From the IMG/VR virus record IMGVR_UViG_2913167280_000002: a stretch of DNA of 46,386 nucleotides; one strand, given 5' to 3'. Below, one piece after another: positions 3,264 to 34,712 of this stretch. The notes beneath the pieces were generated by a model that was not told the origin of the DNA, ran no database searches, and saw nothing but the letters and a program-made list of their open reading frames with translations. Every line of letters starts with the position of its first letter. The first letter of the stretch is position 1. Source of the stretch: a virus. Lineage: Duplodnaviria > Heunggongvirae > Uroviricota > Caudoviricetes. The translations under genes and the position numbers were made by a program.

Positions 3264-3272
3264 GGATTGAGC

Positions 3273-3620
3273 ATGTGGACGGTACTTTTTAGCCAGCGAT
3301 TTGACGACTGGCTAAATGAGCAAGAAGACGCTCTTCAGGAAAAGGTTTTGGCTGATTTGAAAAAGCTACAGGTTTACGGACCTGAGTTACCCAGGCCATA
3401 TGCCGATACCGTAAAAGGTTCTCGGTACAAAAATATGAAAGAGCTTCGCGTTCAGTTTTCTGGCCGTCCGATAAGAGCCTTTTATGCGTTCGATCCGATT
3501 CGCCGGGCCATCGTTCTTTGTGCAGGAGACAAAAGTAACGATAAGCGGTTTTATGAAAAACTGGTGCGTATAGCTGAGGATGAGTTTGCAGCACATCTGA
3601 ACACACTGGAGAGCAAGTAA
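3273..3620 (+). CDS. higB: type II toxin, RelE/ParE superfamily (HigB-like)
   Basis: RAFYAFDPIRRAIVLCAGDKSNDKRFYE motif typical of HigB/Gp49-type toxins; toxin-first gene order; stop overlaps next start. Confidence 0.6.
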   Translation: MWTVLFSQRFDDWLNEQEDALQEKVLADLKKLQVYGPELPRPYADTVKGSRYKNMKELRVQFSGRPIRAFYAFDPIRRAIVLCAGDKSNDKRFYEKLVRIAEDEFAAHLNTLESK

Positions 3621-3919
3621 TGAGAACATTAGATGAGGCGATTGCCAGCCGTTCACCTGAAAGCCAGGCGCGAATTAAAGAAATGGCAGATGAGATGATT
3701 CTTGAGGTCGGCTTGCAGATGATGCGTGAAGAACTCCAGTTATCACAAAAACAGGTTGCTGAGGCGATGGGTATAAGCCAGCCAGCAGTAACAAAGCTGG
3801 AGCAGCGCGGAAATGATTTAAAGCTGGCGACATTAAAGCGTTACGTTGAAGCTATGGGAGGCAAATTAAGCCTGGATGTTGAGCTTCCCACAGGAAAACG
3901 AATAGCGTTTAACATCTGA
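3620..3919 (+). CDS. higA: HTH (XRE-family) antitoxin, HigA-like
   Basis: HTH segment LSQKQVAEAMGISQPAVTKLE; ATGA overlap with the upstream toxin gene. Confidence 0.6.
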   Translation: MRTLDEAIASRSPESQARIKEMADEMILEVGLQMMREELQLSQKQVAEAMGISQPAVTKLEQRGNDLKLATLKRYVEAMGGKLSLDVELPTGKRIAFNI

Positions 3920-5571: not shown

Positions 5572-5604
5572 AAGAGAGAAAAGAGTAAGGGGCCGTAGCC
5601 CCTT
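5572..5604 (-). terminator. rho-independent terminator after the antirepressor gene
   Basis: Stem AAGGGGC/GCCCCTT; T-rich tract follows on the minus strand. Confidence 0.5.
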
Positions 5605-5608
5605 GTAG

Positions 5609-6760
5609 TTATGGTCTGCTTTTCTGTGCCAGCTTATCAGCACATGTTTTTATCAGATCCTGTAGTGTCCTGGCTGGCAGGTTTGCATCCAGAACGCTGA
5701 GTATGCTGTTGTGATCAGCTTGGTCGACTACTTTGCCTGTCGGTGGTAGTAGCTTGAGCTGAGGATTCAGGTTTTCGTCAAAGCTGATAAGTGCTCTGGC
5801 GTTTCTGAGCAGATCAAGAAGTAAGGCTGATATCACATTTTCCTGAGTCATTGCTGGCAGATTTAGCGCCGCTTTGGTTTTCCCTGTTGCCTTGTCAAAC
5901 TCCTTGATTAGTTCCTTTCTGTAGTTCGGTTCCGTTAATAGCCGATTATGCTCTGTTGCCGCGCGGATAATCGTTTTTTCCTGGTACAGTCGTTTAGCCA
6001 GATCGCGCTCGTACTGTGTTTTTAACACGCTGCTGATAGCGTTAAAGGCTTCAATGTAGGCCAGCTTGATATCTTTCACGCCTGGACCGTCGATGCTCTC
6101 CATGAGCAAGGTAAATCCGTCTTTTGTCATGCGATAGATTGTTATTTCGCGGTCGCTTCCTTCCAGCGGTCGTTGCTCTTTAAAGAAGTGACGCGCCGCA
6201 GCCGTGCGAGGAATGCGTAGCGCATCGATGGCCATAACGATGGAATTGTTTGTGGTGCTGAATGCCTGGGCAACATCGGCTGAGGTTGTGAGTGGCTCGT
6301 TGTTGCACACTTTAATGTAAAACATCGGTTTGGCGTTGAGCGTATCGACAACCTCACGAGCATTGTTTGGCGAGACGGTTACGGTCGCGGCCGTTTGCGC
6401 GTTCTGGCTGAAATAGCAGTCTTCCAGCCGTTCGAATACATCCCACGCCTGATCGGTTTCGAGCATTTTAGCGTGACGTGCAGCCCCGCGTTCTGTCCAG
6501 AGGATGAGAGAGCGAGTTTTGGGGGAAATTTGCACCTCATTTTGTGACTCGTTTAAAACTAGTCGCAAATTTTTGAGTTCATCACCAACAGCTTTAAAGA
6601 AGTGCTTCCCCTCAATGAACCGAGTTTTATTTTCATGGTGATTTTGCTGTATACGGATTGCTTCTGTTCCATAAAGGCGGGCGAGTAGCTCAGTTGTGAT
6701 TACTGGAATCTGATTATGCAGGATAGGCTGTAGGGTGTTAACGATCGGAAGCGTTTTCAT
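5609..6760 (-). CDS. phage antirepressor-like protein (Ant/Rha-type)
   Basis: 383 aa; N-terminal region resembles antirepressor/Rha regulatory domains; preceded by an overlapping small ORF as in P1 icd-ant. Confidence 0.5.
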   Translation of the reverse strand: MKTLPIVNTLQPILHNQIPVITTELLARLYGTEAIRIQQNHHENKTRFIEGKHFFKAVGDELKNLRLVLNESQNEVQISPKTRSLILWTERGAARHAKMLETDQAWDVFERLEDCYFSQNAQTAATVTVSPNNAREVVDTLNAKPMFYIKVCNNEPLTTSADVAQAFSTTNNSIVMAIDALRIPRTAAARHFFKEQRPLEGSDREITIYRMTKDGFTLLMESIDGPGVKDIKLAYIEAFNAISSVLKTQYERDLAKRLYQEKTIIRAATEHNRLLTEPNYRKELIKEFDKATGKTKAALNLPAMTQENVISALLLDLLRNARALISFDENLNPQLKLLPPTGKVVDQADHNSILSVLDANLPARTLQDLIKTCADKLAQKSRP

Positions 6761-6948
6761 TTTGCACCTCCCATAACAACTTTGGTTACGAGGGAGATTT
6801 TTGCGTCAGAAACAGCGTTATCGTTGCTGGCGATGCGCATAGCTTCGCGCTCGATGATTTCAGCCAGGCGGAATTTATCGGCGTATGAGGCTTTCTTGAG
6901 AAGGATCTTTACGAGGTTGACGTAATAGTCATGGGGTAGGTTTGTCAT
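6757..6948 (-). CDS. small protein translationally coupled to the antirepressor (icd-like position)
   Basis: 63 aa; ATGA overlap with the antirepressor start. Confidence 0.4.
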   Translation of the reverse strand: MTNLPHDYYVNLVKILLKKASYADKFRLAEIIEREAMRIASNDNAVSDAKISLVTKVVMGGAK

Positions 6949-7113
6949 TGTGATGATTCCCTTAAAGGTTAAGGATACTCACCACCGTCAGGTTCCAATC
7001 ATTGGGTGGTGAGACGTGCAGGGTTGGAACTACCGGACACAATGACGAACCGGCGAGTCTTACGACTCCCCCGCACGCCCCACCATAATTTGGGTGTAGC
7101 AGTGCTTTACGCA

Positions 7114-7200
7114 TAAAAAAACCGCTAACGCGGTATGCGCCATTGTGTCTACGGGGTTCCAATCCCGGCCGTAGATTTTGCTACGGCTCGGAAAGTGTCC
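7114..7200 (-). ncRNA. candidate small regulatory RNA upstream of the antirepressor operon (c4-like position)
   Basis: Minus-strand terminator (stem ACCGC/GCGGT at 7121-7134 plus T-run); hairpin 7149-7174 whose loop carries GGTTCCAAT; no ORF. Boundaries approximate. Confidence 0.3.
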
Positions 7201-7245
7201 ACCAATGGCGCATTCATGTCAATACGGCGGGATTTTAACAGACTA

Positions 7246-7263
7246 AACCACATAGTGTGGGTT
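7246..7263. promoter_or_regulatory. operator-like palindrome (ACCAC-N5-GTGGG)
   Basis: aaccacatagtgtgggtt between the divergent antirepressor region and the 7398 HTH gene. Confidence 0.35.
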
Positions 7264-7397
7264 TGAATGCGGGGCTTTTAATTTTCTTGATATGCTAAAA
7301 ACGGGAATGTATAGTTCCTGTAAGGAATCAATTAGTCCTGAGTTATGATGTTTTGTTAAAGTCGGGAACAAGAAAAAATTCAGTATGGGGATAAAAA

Positions 7398-7937
7398 ATG
7401 ATTGAACTGTCAAAAAACTCATGTTTTTCAACCATTCACCTAATGATCATAAAAGAACTTAGGCTAGAAAGAGGTGTGCATCAAGGAGTACTGGCTCAAG
7501 CTGCTGGAAAAACACCAAACGCATGGACAAAGATAGAGAACGGGCAGTCTATATTAACAGTTGACGCCCTTTTTGGTGCTTTCACAGCCCTTAATATTAC
7601 TCCAGTGAATTTCATGTCATTGGTAGAAAATCTTATTCCCGAATTTAACCGTTATGGTTACTTCTTTTTCCCTGGAACAATCAGTCAGGACGAGGATAAC
7701 CTTTTACCTCTGATGCTGCGTTACTTTAATAGCAAGGGGTTTGAAGCATTGAGAAATAGGCCATTAGAAAGAGTTAGCATTAGCTCAATGGGATTCTCAT
7801 TTGGGGGCGGCATCCCTGTTACTCCAACTGCTGTAATGTATTGTTGCGATGAAGCATATAGAAATTGGGTCGATAACGGTGCTGATGTGGATAATCGAGA
7901 TTATCTGGAGTCATCAACAGGTCGTGGACTGTTTTAA
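7398..7937 (+). CDS. HTH (XRE-family) domain protein with C-terminal domain of unknown function
   Basis: N-terminal HTH segment GVLAQAAGKTPNAWTKIENG; 179 aa. Confidence 0.5.
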   Translation: MIELSKNSCFSTIHLMIIKELRLERGVHQGVLAQAAGKTPNAWTKIENGQSILTVDALFGAFTALNITPVNFMSLVENLIPEFNRYGYFFFPGTISQDEDNLLPLMLRYFNSKGFEALRNRPLERVSISSMGFSFGGGIPVTPTAVMYCCDEAYRNWVDNGADVDNRDYLESSTGRGLF

Positions 7938-7982: not shown

Positions 7983-8374
7983 GTGCTGATCGGATTCGCG
8001 GTCCTTTCAGCATTACGTTGTTGTATAAACAACCACGCAAGCACAAGCAGCAAGTTGATTTTACCCAAAAGGTAATAATAGTCCACTATTATGCTTCAAA
8101 AAATTGTGGTTCTTGTTGTGTCTGCAAACTCACAGATTGTGGGTAGGTTACTGATTTTGTGAAAATAAACTGGTTTTTTCGTTTAATTTATTTCCTATTA
8201 CTAATCTTAAAATAATCGTAAAATACCTGTGGACCTTCCCGCCGATTCGCACCCGGGCACCGACTTTAGGGGAGGATTTCCTGTTGCCGTACATGCAAGC
8301 ACAAGCAGCCGTGCTTGCTCTCGCGTTGTTTTCGTCGGTGGGGATGCCGTGAAACGGCCTGTAAGGGCCATACA

Positions 8375-8497
8375 ATGAAAAAATACTGTATGTGTATTTT
8401 TATCGTTGTTACTGGGGCTTTGTTTACGCCACATGGGGAGGGTTGGAAGATTACTGATAACGCTCTGAATGTGACGATAAACATTAGCAGCAAGTAG
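8375..8497 (+). CDS. candidate small hydrophobic peptide (40 aa)
   Basis: MKKYCMCIFIVVTGALFTPHG...; AAGGG about 8 nt upstream; ends just before the terminator at 8503. Speculative. Confidence 0.25.
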   Translation: MKKYCMCIFIVVTGALFTPHGEGWKITDNALNVTINISSK

Positions 8498-8502
8498 CGA
8501 TT

Positions 8503-8526
8503 AGGCCCCTTCGGGGGCCTTTTTTA
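8503..8526 (+). terminator. rho-independent terminator
   Basis: Stem AGGCCCC/GGGGCCT, loop TTCG, then TTTTT. Confidence 0.65.
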
Positions 8527-9039: not shown

Positions 9040-9693
9040 TTACGCGGCAGTAGTCAGAGCCTCAAGCTGGTTGATAATCCCCTGAATAACGTCGTCTGCC
9101 TTTTTGCGTGGCGCAACGTATGAGCACTCAATGAGGCTTAAGCCCTTATCCTGAGCTTTGCTCAGAGCTGGCTTGTGGGGAATGTACTTATCGACAACAA
9201 AGTATGGCGTATTAGCCAGGTACTCTTGGGCTTCGATGTAGTCAGCTTCGTTTTCAGCCGCGCCGGAAAACACCATGCAAATTTTCTTGATTGGTACGCC
9301 CTTTTTAACGATGCCGTGAGCAGTGTTAACGGTGGTTTCAAGGTCATCGGTAGAGAATCGGGTTGGCAAAATAACCATATCCAGAAATTCAGATAGCTTC
9401 GGTACTGATTCAGATGCGTAGGCACCGCCATCAACGATAACCAGGTCGTATACTTCTGATTCGATGATTTTCTGGACTTGTGATGGCGTGCCGCACGGCT
9501 GCGCCGCGATTGCAGGTTCGATATTGTTGGCCATTCTGCGTTGTACCCAACGCGTTACCGTTCCGTTAAGCACATCCATATCGATCAGGCATACATTCCA
9601 GCCAGCCTTTGCATAAGCAACTGCTAAAGCACGGGCAATGGTTGATTTGGTTACGCCGCCTTTTCCGTTGAAAATACCTACAGATATAGTCAT
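9040..9693 (-). CDS. parA: partition ATPase ParA (small type Ib)
   Basis: Deviant Walker A GKGGVTKST; about 217 aa; GGAG RBS before the second in-frame Met. Confidence 0.8.
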   Translation of the reverse strand: MTISVGIFNGKGGVTKSTIARALAVAYAKAGWNVCLIDMDVLNGTVTRWVQRRMANNIEPAIAAQPCGTPSQVQKIIESEVYDLVIVDGGAYASESVPKLSEFLDMVILPTRFSTDDLETTVNTAHGIVKKGVPIKKICMVFSGAAENEADYIEAQEYLANTPYFVVDKYIPHKPALSKAQDKGLSLIECSYVAPRKKADDVIQGIINQLEALTTAA

Positions 9694-9714
9694 TTGTCGA
9701 GACTCCATGTGTTT

Positions 9715-10250: not shown

Positions 10251-10267
10251 AACCACAAAATGTGGTT
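10251..10267. promoter_or_regulatory. operator palindrome AACCACAAAATGTGGTT
   Basis: Perfect 17-bp palindrome between the repressor stop and the next minus-strand gene. Confidence 0.45.
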
Positions 10268-10308: not shown

Positions 10309-10965
10309 TCATAACCAGTTGACAACACTAACTACGCGGCCCAGAACTTTATAACGCTTAAATTCCTCGTTATTCAGATGCTTAGTGTTCATTTCAGCAT
10401 CCCTTTCGGTTGACAGCATAACAGCATTGTCACCCGGTATGACTCTACAGTGCCTCAAAACAACCAGGCCATTTCTGTCTTCAAGGGCATAGATCCCCTC
10501 ATGAATCTCTGTATCGTCTGTATCAATCAGGACTTGGGAGCCAGGGGATATTGTTGGTGACATTAACTCATCGTTGCTCTGGAGAACTGACAGAGACGAT
10601 GGGTTGATGTTCTTGCTTCGTAGAATCTCCTGTTCTATCGCCAGCACTGGCTTTTCTCCGGCGTGCGATGCTATGTCATTTTTTATAGCTACAAGCCCAG
10701 GAATAACAGGAGCGTTAGTATTCTGGGGTGGGAACGGGTTATCTGTTAAGCACGCGATATAAGGCGCTGATGCTTTCAGGGCGTGAGCGATTTTCTTGAT
10801 GGCAGGTATAGATGGTTGTCTTAATCCGGCCTCATAGTTCTGCAAGGTGCTTAAGCCTATTCCAGTGACTTGCTGGAGATCTCCGGCAGTCATGCCGGAT
10901 TGTTTCCGTAGAGTCTGAATGCGCAGACCTATTTCTTTCTTGATGTTCTCGTCGTTGCTTTTCAT
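10309..10965 (-). CDS. CI-like prophage repressor (HTH plus LexA/S24-like C-terminal domain)
   Basis: N-terminal HTH (LQQVTGIGLSTLQNYEAG) and C-terminal S24-like region; divergent from the early operon. Confidence 0.75.
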   Translation of the reverse strand: MKSNDENIKKEIGLRIQTLRKQSGMTAGDLQQVTGIGLSTLQNYEAGLRQPSIPAIKKIAHALKASAPYIACLTDNPFPPQNTNAPVIPGLVAIKNDIASHAGEKPVLAIEQEILRSKNINPSSLSVLQSNDELMSPTISPGSQVLIDTDDTEIHEGIYALEDRNGLVVLRHCRVIPGDNAVMLSTERDAEMNTKHLNNEEFKRYKVLGRVVSVVNWL

Positions 10966-11002: not shown

Positions 11003-11121
11003 ACCACATTTAGTGGTTTTCACGCGGTAAGACGAGATGTGGACCACAAATAGAAGGCTATTTTTTGTTTCGCCCATTGAAAAACTCACGATATGTGGTT
11101 TTAATACCACATATCGTGGTT
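11003..11121. promoter_or_regulatory. immunity-switch operator cluster
   Basis: ACCACATTTAGTGGT (11003-11017), CTCACGATATGTGGTT (11085-11100) and ACCACATATCGTGGTT (11106-11121) in the divergent intergenic region; rightward promoter-like TTGAAA-N17-TTAATA overlaps the last two. Confidence 0.5.
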
Positions 11122-18839: not shown

Positions 18840-19368
18840 GATTTTTAACAGCATTCTTGGAAAAGAGGGCGGCTATGTGGATCACCCTGACGACAAGGGA
18901 GGCCCAACAAAGTGGGGCATTACTCAGAACACTGCCCGTGCTCATGGATACCGTGGCGATATGCGCGATTTAACTCGCGAACAGGCTCTGGAAATCCTTG
19001 AGGCTGATTACTGGTACGGCCCACGTTTTGACCAGATAGCAACTCTGTCGCCGGATATTGCCGCAGAACTGTGCGACACGGGCGTCAACATGGGGCCAAC
19101 AGTGGCGTCAAAAATGCTTCAACGCTGGCTGAATGTGTTCAATCTGCGTGGGAAGCTGTATCCCGATTTGGATGCAGATGGACGAATTGGTCCACGTACC
19201 ATTAATGCGCTGCGTGCTTATCTTGGGAATCGGGGAAAAGACGGCGAACGGGTGATGCTGACGTCGCTGAACTGTACGCAGGGCGAACGCTATCTGGAGT
19301 TGGCGGAGAAGCGCGAGGCTAATGAGTCGTTTGTCTACGGCTGGATGAAAGAGCGAGTGGTGGTATGA
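18826..19368 (+). CDS. endolysin (glycoside hydrolase family 108-like with peptidoglycan-binding domain)
   Basis: N-terminal ILGKEGGYVDHPDDKGGPTKWGIT signature. Confidence 0.7.
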   Translation: MTKDEIFNSILGKEGGYVDHPDDKGGPTKWGITQNTARAHGYRGDMRDLTREQALEILEADYWYGPRFDQIATLSPDIAAELCDTGVNMGPTVASKMLQRWLNVFNLRGKLYPDLDADGRIGPRTINALRAYLGNRGKDGERVMLTSLNCTQGERYLELAEKREANESFVYGWMKERVVV

Positions 19369-19643
19369 CTGGTTTGAAGGCCGTTTTGTCATTTATTGGC
19401 ACAATTATATTGGTTGCATTCGGCGCGTTTGGTTTTGGTCGTATGAAGGGGCGAGAAAAGGCCGAAGATGAAGCTGAAAAGCAGCGCATTAATGAGAATG
19501 TAGCCGCCGTAAAAGCCACTGCGGAGCGGCGTATAGAAGTGACAAAAGAGGTGGGGAATGTACAGCAGAGTGTTAACCATATGGCTGATGACGATGTTGA
19601 TCGCGAGCTGCGGGAGTCGTGGAAGCGTCCCGGTGGTGGTTGA
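19365..19643 (+). CDS. i-spanin (Rz-like)
   Basis: N-terminal transmembrane helix then charged, coiled-coil-like region; follows the endolysin. Confidence 0.5.
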   Translation: MTGLKAVLSFIGTIILVAFGAFGFGRMKGREKAEDEAEKQRINENVAAVKATAERRIEVTKEVGNVQQSVNHMADDDVDRELRESWKRPGGG

Positions 19644-19936: not shown

Positions 19937-20012
19937 GGCCCCTTAGCTCAGTGGTTAGAGCAGGCGACTCATAATCGCACGGTCATCGGTTCAAGTCCGG
20001 TAGGGGCCACCA
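19937..20012 (+). tRNA. tRNA with CAU anticodon (Met or lysidine-modified Ile)
   Basis: 76 nt; 7-bp acceptor stem, D-arm GCTC/GAGC, anticodon loop CTCATAA, T-loop TTCAAGT, encoded CCA; one G-A mismatch at the top of the anticodon stem. Confidence 0.75.
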
Positions 20013-34368: not shown

Positions 34369-34712
34369 TGAACTCCTTCAAAGAGGTTATAGCGCAAGAT
34401 ATTTCTGCAATATTCCTCAATGAAAAAGAGTTTGCCGATACATATAACATAGACGGCAAGGATATCCTTGCCGTAATTGATACAGACCTTATTCATGAGC
34501 GGAATAAACGCTCATATGCTGAGTTTGCAGAGGGAATAAATCAGGGGCAAATAATATTATTTGTTTCAAGAAAAGATTTTCCTGTTCTCCCTGTCAAAGA
34601 CCAGTCAATGAAAATCAACGGTAAAAATTATATTGTTGATGAAGTGTCAGATAATGTTGGTGTATTGGAAATAACTCTTACTGTTAATACTAACAGAGGA
34701 ATGCCGATTTGA
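34368..34712 (+). CDS. hypothetical head-tail connector or completion protein
   Basis: Position between capsid and tail genes. Confidence 0.4.
   Translation: MNSFKEVIAQDISAIFLNEKEFADTYNIDGKDILAVIDTDLIHERNKRSYAEFAEGINQGQIILFVSRKDFPVLPVKDQSMKINGKNYIVDEVSDNVGVLEITLTVNTNRGMPI

Follow-up and report, generated by a model that had tools for sequence, protein, structure and literature searches.

We report that a minus-strand region of the virus record IMGVR_UViG_2913167280_000002 (Caudoviricetes) is very probably a C4-type immI module governing the antirepressor operon of a phage-plasmid of ~48 kb, a reading to which we assign a probability of about 0.85. The analysis covered the complete record, a stretch of 46,386 nucleotides that is referred to below as the window. 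Covariance-model matches indicate that the RNA part of the module is homologous to the c4 region of phages P1 and P7 and to the isrK locus of the Salmonella prophage Gifsy-1. Along the minus strand, a promoter-like site is followed by a unit that is free of open reading frames (ORFs) and ends in a terminator, a second ORF-free stretch, an ORF of 63 codons (orf63), and an ORF encoding an antirepressor-type protein of 383 amino acids. The analysis established the RNA homology, the RNA structures, the complementarities and their covariation, the coding nature of orf63, and the conservation of its coupling junction. It also established the relationship of the antirepressor to AnrP of Gifsy-1 and the sharing of an operator-like motif between the operon and the gene of a CI-like repressor.

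The module is an ordinary, cleanly kept copy of a known phage control device, the principle of which is unchanged, and specialists of phage immunity would find no surprise here. Its particular features are a new combination of address segments, the placement of one target (b2) over a start codon, a coupling ORF other than icd, a putative primary repressor of the CI type rather than of the C1 type, and a host phage-plasmid other than P1. The main gain is one of annotation, since a poorly annotated stretch proved to contain members of two curated RNA families together with a genuine small gene. In related public records, the module is merely labeled as "hypothetical protein" or "ash family protein."

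C4 RNA, leader RNA, and address segments

The window was scanned with the Rfam covariance models at their gathering thresholds. On the minus strand, positions 7090 to 7002 matched the full length of the C4 model (RF01695; model positions 1 to 87) with 77.8 bits, versus a gathering threshold of 45. The predicted mature form of the C4 antisense RNA (~80 nt) extends from 7084 to 7005, its ends being taken by analogy from the annotated ends of P1 c4. In the fold of this RNA, a closing stem of 16 bp surrounds two inner hairpins, and ACC is left as a tail at the 3' end; the minimum free energy of -46.1 kcal/mol (z = -6.2) was reached by none of 200 shuffled sequences. As predicted by the family model, the fold leaves two recognition segments unpaired. 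Segment a' (GUUCCAA; 7030 to 7024) is located in the single-stranded junction and corresponds to GTTGGAAC of the plus strand (7023 to 7030), whereas segment b' (GUCAUUGUG; 7046 to 7038) occupies the loop of hairpin 2. The U|G step at the 5' end, the acceptor-like 16-bp stem, and the ACC tail provide a possible processing context, as in P1.

Upstream of C4, the isrK model (RF01394) identified a leader RNA of ~73 nt (7187 to 7115) with 70 bits, versus a gathering threshold of 50. The c4-a1b1 model (RF03163), which was searched at a relaxed threshold, aligned with positions 7200 to 7148 with 39.8 bits, below its gathering threshold of 46.7 (E value of 1e-8 for the stretch searched). The leader is composed of hairpin 1, hairpin 2 with target a1 in its loop, the single-stranded target b1, and an intrinsic terminator; the match above the gathering threshold and the three hairpins, the last of which is the terminator, are the features of the isrK family. 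The original prediction, drawn from the letters of the window alone, had described an ORF-free minus-strand unit ending in its own terminator, and the terminator scan located this structure at the same place (ACCGC-GUUA-GCGGU at 7134 to 7121, followed by U6; 7134 to 7115 in all). The proximal promoter consists of TTGACA (7222 to 7217) and GACACT (7199 to 7194) separated by 17 nt, with a start at ~7187, the 5' end of the leader RNA being predicted at the G of GCCGUAGC. This promoter has the position of the Gifsy-1 isrK promoter, and the alignment of the c4-a1b1 model takes in its -10 region.

Each recognition segment of C4 has two targets on the same transcript. In the leader, a1 (AUUGGAAC; 7163 to 7156) offers 7 nt (UUGGAAC) to a', and b1 (ACACAAUGGCG; 7148 to 7138) offers 11 bp to b', including one G-U pair. 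The duplex formed by b1 and the b' loop has an energy of -15.4 kcal/mol, versus -7.6 ± 1.9 kcal/mol for shuffled sequences. On the other side of C4, a2 (AUUGGAAC; 6999 to 6992) lies 5 nt 3' of the predicted C4 end and forms 7 bp with a'. The complement of b', b2 (CACAAUGAC; 6952 to 6944), spans the AUG of orf63 (6948 to 6946), over which 9 bp are formed, and an SD-like AAGGGA (for Shine-Dalgarno [SD] sequence) is present ahead of orf63 at 6963 to 6958. The energies of the duplexes of a' and b' with the leader and with the mRNA are 2 to 4 standard deviations below the mean obtained with shuffled targets. Folding of the whole leader region (7187 to 6940) resulted in long-range pairing of a1b1 to a'b' (z = -5.7). 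An alternative hairpin is predicted in the unprocessed transcript (7013 to 6978), in which the 3' strand of C4, CUCACCACC (7013 to 7005), pairs with GGUGGUGAG (6986 to 6978) and a2 occupies the loop. Both arms are found in relatives with changes that preserve pairing (CUCGCCA with UGGCGAG in locus L102, as compared by eye). The terminator scan revealed no terminator-like structure between C4 and orf63 or the antirepressor gene.

Part of this pairing scheme had been anticipated. The motif GGTTCCAAT had been reported to occur twice, in hairpin loops, and there are exactly two copies in the window; the second is located at 7155 to 7163, one position away from the predicted 7156 to 7164. Both copies can occupy loops, i.e., those of isrK hairpin 2 and of the CUCACCACC/GGUGGUGAG hairpin, and the partial complement that had been placed between them is indeed GTTGGAAC at 7023 to 7030. 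The 7-nt complementarity is real and corresponds to the GUUCCAA pairing, but it is one of two, the 9-nt pairing of b' with b2 over the start codon having been overlooked. The counts of these motifs are not significant by themselves, since at least two matches to GGTTCCAAT and at least three matches to GTTGGAAC were present in 9 and 24 of 100 shuffled windows, respectively. That the two motifs are nonetheless more than chance occurrences is indicated by the matches to Rfam models and by covariation at specific positions among relatives.

For the analysis of covariation, 120 stretches of viral contigs were recovered by means of a 15-nt probe directed at the conserved 5' stem of C4. The set contained 104 unique sequences with complete context, 87 of which were amenable to automatic parsing; the 17 unique sequences left out comprised ~5 chance matches to the 15-mer, and the others had CUGG in hairpin 1. 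Both a1 and a2 were complementary to a' over at least 7 nt in all 87 loci. The a' segments fell into 16 classes, and none of 6192 cross-class pairs had such a match at the target positions. Complementarity of at least 7 nt between b2 and the hairpin-2 loop was found in 80 of the 87 loci, and b1 was complementary over at least 6 nt in 63. In total, 28 distinct hairpin-2 loops and 39 distinct a/b combinations were present, and a terminator with a T run was located upstream of C4 in 84 of the 87 loci. In ~70 of the 80 relatives, b2 ends 9 to 15 nt ahead of the start codon, on the SD sequence, whereas it covers the AUG itself in the window and in its orf63 family; the latter position is that of a minority of loci and is expected to act in the same way.

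Viral contigs encoding an identical or nearly identical 63-amino-acid protein carry swapped a and b addresses. In this orf63 family, a' is GUUCCAA, ACGCCAA, or AGGCUAA and b' is GUCAUUGUG, UCAUGAUGA, or CCAUGGUGA, with matching changes at a1, at a2, at b1, and in the bases directly 5' of the AUG (CACAAUG, CAUCAUG, and CACCAUG). Address swaps with matching changes in the targets are the pattern expected of a working antisense lock, as judged from these comparisons. According to a 2025 review, which cites Citron and Schuster (1990), matching address changes are the known basis of P1/P7 heteroimmunity. Specificity differs between relatives as it does between P1 and P7. The a' segment of the window was found in two other parsed loci (L003 and L107) and its b' segment was unique among the 87. 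Within the orf63 family, L128 and L131 carry both the a' and the b' segments of the window, and L125 and L127 carry its b' segment with a different a' segment.

The order of these elements, including a terminator-like hairpin between b1 and C4, is that of P1, the record of which lists promoter P2c4 with the C1 operator Oc4, promoter P1c4, a1, b1, c4 (77 nt), a2, b2, icd, and ant1. The score of C4 was 68.8 bits in P1, versus 77.8 bits in the window. In both elements, a' is located in the junction, b' in the loop of hairpin 2, and a2 directly 3' of C4; the b2 target differs in that it lies on the SD sequence in P1 and on the start codon in the window. In Gifsy-1, isrK and C4 scored 79 and 69 bits, respectively (70 bits for isrK in the window), and a' is ACGCCAA instead of GUUCCAA. 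Pairing of the leader with C4 in cis is predicted in the window as in Gifsy-1 ("structure A"; PMC4825925). The Gifsy-1 frame "orf45," which starts inside C4 and both AUGs of which fall in the 5' strand of the C4 stem, is not conserved in the window, where it runs for 8 codons. Likewise, the Rfam scan detected no isrJ after the antirepressor gene of the window.

The isrK, c4-a1b1, and C4 models matched P1 and Gifsy-1 in the same order as in the window. Since the isrK and c4-a1b1 models overlap in P1 and Gifsy-1, they are two models of one element, and the matches indicate that IsrK/"orf45" of Gifsy-1 and a1b1/c4 of P1 are one device. In Rfam, isrK belongs to no clan and c4-a1b1 belongs to clan CL00128; both fall on a single element in Gifsy-1 (positions 2399 to 2600 of locus L002), in P1, and in the window (7200 to 7115).

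Coding sequences and operator-like palindromes

The 63-codon ORF (6948 to 6757, minus strand), which occupies the position of P1 icd, matched PHROG 7886 end to end (E value of 2e-47). As proposed in the original prediction, it overlaps the start of the 383-codon ORF (6760 to 5609) through ATGA, an arrangement equivalent to the 4-nt overlap of icd and ant1 in P1. Its 3' end, GGAGGUGCAAAAUGA, carries the SD sequence and the start codon of the antirepressor gene. Homologues in loci L133, L134, and L135 (71 to 90% identity) retain the length of 63 codons, and substitutions are located chiefly at third codon positions (19 of 26, 37 of 62, and 31 of 56). In the copy of L136 (66% identity), a stop codon shortens the ORF to 23 codons. 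All homologues end in GGAGGUGCnAAAUGA, which comprises the SD sequence and the start codon of the next gene (6757 to 6771 in the window and 1675 to 1692 in L133 to L135). Judged by these features, orf63 is a genuine gene, the SD-AUGA junction of which to the antirepressor gene is conserved. The gene that follows varies with the locus and encodes a protein with ORF6N and Rha domains, a Rha-like protein without ORF6N, or an apparent N terminus of a P22-type antirepressor, the latter two assignments having been made by eye from the sequences. Because the downstream gene differs while the junction stays, orf63 behaves as a portable coupling leader, and it looks like a movable translational-coupling adaptor placed as icd is in P1.

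In L134 and L135, the orf63 homologues (71 to 73% identity) are preceded by sRNA-Xcc1 (RF02221) instead of C4 (L134, 1379 to 1464, 76 bits; L135, 1376 to 1460, 70 bits). This RNA was described from Xanthomonas integrons. Two of its segments show complementarity to a terminated leader located upstream and to the orf63 homologue's SD region, and the addresses differ between the two loci. In L134 and L135, sRNA-Xcc1 seems to work as a C4-type riboregulator that follows the same a/b logic.

The 383-amino-acid protein (5609 to 6760, minus strand) contains ORF6N (Pfam E value of 3e-20) and Rha (Phage_pRha; E value of 4e-12) domains and matched antirepressor families of PHROG. Its 156 N-terminal residues are 53% identical to AnrP of Gifsy-1 (E value of 2e-48), the homology extending over the ORF6N domain. 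Relative to AnrP, the protein of the window additionally has a Rha domain and a long C-terminal part. This AnrP-type antirepressor is encoded on the same strand as the isrK element and downstream of it, with no terminator between C4 and the gene. The two loci differ in the coupling, since in Gifsy-1 the antirepressor gene directly follows C4 and has b2 on its SD sequence, whereas in the window a separate, conserved 63-codon ORF couples it. Expression of AnrP induces Gifsy-1.

BLASTP produced no alignment of orf63 with P1 Icd and revealed no similarity of the 383-amino-acid protein to P1 Ant1 (E value of 5 or worse). The original prediction had likened the whole region to c4-icd-ant of P1. The likeness holds for the RNA homology, the a/b scheme, and the ATGA coupling but not for the proteins, the small ORF and the antirepressor being unrelated to Icd and to Ant1/Ant2. 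Membership of P1 immI at the protein level was rejected on these grounds.

An operator-like palindrome, AAACC(C)ACA-N3-TGTGGTTT, is located upstream of the operon (7245 to 7264). The palindrome previously proposed at 7246 to 7263 is present, although its core is narrower (CCACA-N3-TGTGG, 7248 to 7260) and the extension to 7245 to 7264 is imperfect. The motif CCACANNNTGTGG has six sites with at most one mismatch in the window, versus 0.96 expected, and none of 100 shuffled windows reached six. The palindrome was kept at the same position in relatives and in the plasmid of E. coli ATCC 25922. Other palindromes, at 11004, 11107, and 11086 (two mismatches), are located in the 173-bp gap between the gene of a 218-amino-acid protein and a divergent early operon. 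The site at 10253 lies directly downstream of the 218-codon gene, and those at 8130 and 45222 are near neither locus.

The 218-amino-acid protein (10309 to 10965, minus strand) has an HTH_3 domain (E value of 4.5e-11) and a Peptidase_S24 match that, with 20 bits, falls short of the cut-off of 23.3. Its architecture resembles that of CI, and it is predicted to be a repressor. The CI-like repressor that had been anticipated is thus represented by this protein with a weak S24 match, which is encoded 3 kb away and is accompanied, as the operon is, by operator-like palindromes. The adjoining, divergent gene (7398 to 7937) encodes a helix-turn-helix (HTH) protein without an S24 domain. Palindromes of the form AAACCACA-N3-TGTGGTTT ring the CI-like gene (10253 to 10265, 11004 to 11016, 11086 to 11098, and 11107 to 11119) and overlap the promoter-like TTGAAA-17-TTTAAT of the divergent early operon (11139 onward). 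We regard this set of palindromes as the probable main switch of immunity in the element.

The two upstream regions have similar layouts. The early promoter reads TTGAAA-AAC-TCACGATATGTGG-T-TTTAAT, the palindromes occupying the spacer and the start site, and the upstream region of the C4 operon reads TTCAAA-CC-CACACTATGTGG-TT-TAGTCT, followed by the extended -10-like TGTTAAAAT. The putative upstream promoter of the operon (7267 to 7232, minus strand) consists of TTCAAA (7267 to 7262) and TAGTCT (7245 to 7240) separated by 16 nt or, alternatively, uses the extended -10 TGTTAAAAT (7240 to 7232). The palindrome covers the -35 and spacer regions of these two weak candidates, 38 to 46 nt upstream of the proximal -10. 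In P1, promoter P2c4 (P51a), with its operator Oc4 (Op51), lies 40 nt upstream of P1c4. Since the motif recurs at the promoters of the CI-like gene, the palindrome of the operon is a plausible operator of the CI-like repressor, similar to Op51, and the putative upstream promoter gated in this way would mirror P2c4. The predicted operators of the HTH/CI-like repressor are palindromic, unlike the asymmetric 17-bp operators of P1 C1.

The divergent HTH_3 protein (179 amino acids; plus strand) is preceded by the promoter-like TTGATA-17-TATAGT (7287 to 7315). The block that the window shares with the ATCC 25922 plasmid has its border exactly at TTCAAA, beyond which the upstream DNA is rearranged. 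In a relative that keeps both proteins, the stretch separating the palindrome from the HTH gene is rearranged; the ATCC 25922 plasmid encodes an almost identical CI-like protein and a 179-amino-acid protein with 91% identity. The 179-amino-acid protein is a less likely binder of the palindrome, because the motif recurs at the CI-like gene and the intervening DNA is rearranged. Direct repeats ending in CGGGAA were found at 7288 to 7307 and 7349 to 7368 of the window, and several copies of GGGAACTT were found at 19560 to 19700 of the relative L123. These CGGGAA/TTCCCG repeats are located between the palindrome and the 179-codon gene, in the promoter region of the latter, and may be operators of the HTH protein. 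The LexA box (CTGT-N8-ACAG) had a single match in the window, at 34681, distant from the module and at chance level; the search thus provided no evidence for direct SOS control of the operon.

Proposed mechanism and alternative readings

In the mechanism that we propose, transcription would start at ~7187 from TTGACA-17-GACACT, the upstream promoter being probably covered by the operator of the CI-like repressor, which would limit transcription of the operon. Most transcripts would stop at the intrinsic terminator, producing the ~73-nt leader RNA (isrK/a1b1). Read-through transcripts would hold C4 (~80 nt), presumably excised as in P1, with cleavage by RNase P at U|G before GGUGGGG and an ACC tail at the 3' end. 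The excised RNA would expose GUUCCAA (a') at its junction and GUCAUUGUG (b') within the hairpin-2 loop, and their pairing with a2 (UUGGAAC, just 3' of C4) and with b2 (CACAAUGAC, over the AUG) would block initiation at orf63. Because the start of the antirepressor gene lies in the last codons of orf63 (GGAGGUG...AUGA), silencing of orf63 would also silence the antirepressor, and it would probably expose the message to premature termination, as in P1. In cis, a1 and b1, which are equally good copies of the targets, would pair with a'b' in the full-length transcript. In trans, the leader could titrate C4 and switch the operon on, as for IsrK in Gifsy-1. By analogy, we infer how C4 is processed, in which direction regulation works, what part the operator plays, and which target the antirepressor has. 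On this basis, the module suggests how a family of phage-plasmids, including that of E. coli ATCC 25922 and Yersinia phages, probably keeps shut a second route of induction, that through the antirepressor, with two short address sequences predicting which elements are mutually immune.

The Gifsy-1 locus has been interpreted differently (Hershko-Shalev et al. 2016, PMC4825925). In Gifsy-1, the short IsrK RNA ends at its own terminator, and the AnrP mRNA produced by read-through is transcribed but not translated. IsrK provided in trans increased AnrP translation 139-fold and the expression of transcriptional fusions 8-fold, the activation in trans and the binding of Hfq both being properties reported for this RNA, and the compensatory pairs G28-C162 and G31-C159 define the inactive fold (PMC4825925). 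Applied to the window, this structure switch would involve no free C4 repressor: a helix formed in cis by the leader and C4 would lock the mRNA, and the short leader would compete in trans. The whole leader of the window folds with a1b1 on a'b' (see above), and Gifsy-1 genetics and native gels back two conformers and activation in trans (PMC4825925). However, a structure switch leaves unexplained the covariation of a2 and b2 (87 of 87 and 80 of 87 loci), located at fixed positions by the ribosome-binding site, and the conservation from P1 to the window of a C4 fold that includes a tRNA-like stem and the ACC tail. It is also at odds with STnc1160, a stable processed RNA located downstream of IsrK in Salmonella (PMC4825925), which is highly expressed in lysogens. 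We mapped the published numbering onto the Gifsy-1 sequence and found that G28 and G31 are located in a1 (UUGGCG) and that C159 and C162 are located in a' (ACGCCAA). The published IsrK mutants thus fall exactly on the a1-a' pairs, which joins the IsrK and c4 literatures. The a' mutations C159U and C162U derepress anrP more than 100-fold (PMC4825925), as expected if C4 can no longer bind a2. We consider a switch operating without a C4 repressor to be unlikely, the two models being not mutually exclusive.

About equally unlikely is control of the P4 type, in which pairing of C4 would chiefly cause premature termination of transcription rather than a block of translation initiation. The authors of the Gifsy-1 study noted that IsrK is structurally similar to P4 seqA, as STnc1160 is to P4 CI RNA (PMC4825925). 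In P4 immunity (CI RNA with seqA and seqC), as far as the account given in PMC4825925 extends, the small RNA is processed from the leader of the operon that it controls and pairs with sites on both sides, acting through transcription termination on replication genes; this comparison is literature based, and no P4-specific model matched here. The 8-fold increase of the transcriptional fusions by IsrK in trans and the position of a1 directly upstream of the leader terminator would fit such a control. In contrast, the location of b2, on the start codon in the window and on the SD sequence in ~70 of 80 relatives, is a placement for a translational block, the translational fusions of Gifsy-1 responded 139-fold versus 8-fold for the transcriptional fusions, and no terminator-like structure separates C4 from orf63.

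The original prediction had implicitly taken the terminated RNA (~74 nt, 7187 to 7115) as the c4 analogue, which would act as a repressor through its GGTTCCAAT-bearing loop on the downstream message. This RNA is the sole unit with its own terminator, carries the motif in a hairpin loop, and belongs to an Rfam class of small RNAs (isrK). However, its loop sequence AUUGGAAC has the same sense as the copy at 6999 to 6992, which precludes pairing, and both copies are complementary to the middle element; the terminated RNA is thus not an antisense repressor. It is this middle element to which the C4 model was matched, the homologous upstream sites of P1 are annotated as targets a1/b1 and not as a repressor, and the short RNA of Gifsy-1 activates rather than represses. 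This assignment, which is very improbable, was consequently replaced: the terminated RNA is the isrK/c4-a1b1 leader with copies of the targets, and C4 is the unterminated element at 7084 to 7005. Least probable of all is that 7162 to 6962 encodes a small protein and that the repeats are coincidental, since, despite a 66-codon ORF with a TTG start and the "ash family protein" (PGAP) annotated beneath the match in two records of relatives, variation tracks base pairing and not codons, loop lengths shift by non-multiples of 3, the AUG at the 5' end of C4 opens just 8 codons in the window, and the ORF, which had no Pfam match, was rejected as coding.

Several points weigh against the C4 module reading itself. 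For C4, both the cleavage by RNase P and the 3' end are extrapolated from P1. The functions of the P1 proteins are not transferable, because orf63 and the antirepressor are not homologous to Icd and Ant1. The S24 match of the CI-like protein is below the Pfam cut-off, its matches in the PDB are confined to the HTH, and it had no BLASTP alignment to a LexA query sequence. GACACT is a weak proximal -10, and neither candidate for the upstream promoter reached the scan threshold. The b1 target is less conserved than b2, with complementarity of at least 7 nt in 47 of the 87 loci. Finally, a1 mutations in cis raised, and did not lower, basal translation in Gifsy-1 (PMC4825925), indicating that the leader is not simply a decoy.

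We tentatively extend the C4 module reading, with somewhat less than even odds, to a three-site RNA lock. The terminated leader would be a dedicated anti-antisense decoy, and expression of the antirepressor would be set by the leader-to-C4 ratio, which would depend in turn on terminator read-through and on the CI-gated upstream promoter. The addresses would form a bar code of immunity, the segments swapping independently among nearly identical elements (39 combinations of 16 a classes and 28 b loops in this sample), and orf63 would be a portable adaptor, present ahead of unrelated antirepressor genes and even behind sRNA-Xcc1. If true, this reading would bring the separately described IsrK and c4 systems together in a single class, to which sRNA-Xcc1 might also belong. 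A 2025 review treats IsrK and c4 systems as separate.

Host element and neighboring features

The best matches to the 2.4-kb region were Yersinia phages of ~49 kb and E. coli plasmids of 48 to 52 kb (91 to 96% identity). The plasmid of E. coli ATCC 25922 (NZ_CP009073.1; 48.5 kb), which has the module on its minus strand at 19170 to 19480, is annotated with RepA, ParA, toxin-antitoxin genes, and a complete complement of genes for the head, a P2-like tail, and lysis. The host element is thus a phage-plasmid of ~48 kb with P2-like tail genes and structural genes unrelated to P1, in contrast to a P1-like genome. A terminator-like hairpin located by the terminator scan at 5604 to 5587 (minus strand) ends the operon.

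Other features of the window were noted in the course of the analysis. A tRNA gene with the anticodon CAU is located at 19937 to 20009 (plus strand; 65.7 bits) and is recorded as tRNA-Ile in a relative. An ORF for a RelE/ParE-like toxin (117 amino acids) is followed, with overlapping stop and start codons, by an ORF for an HTH antitoxin-like protein (99 amino acids) at 3267 to 3919 (plus strand), and the annotation of the ATCC 25922 plasmid lists this pair as a type II toxin-antitoxin system. A full-length match to ryfA (RF00126; 143 bits versus a gathering threshold of 80) lies at 8229 to 8525 (plus strand), ~300 nt past the HTH gene and near ParA (9040 to 9708), and contains a small ORF (8315 to 8497). 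Loci of the ryfA type encode a small toxic protein and an antisense antitoxin RNA, and that of the window may be a plasmid-addiction module. A ryfA RNA also adjoins the module in locus L133.

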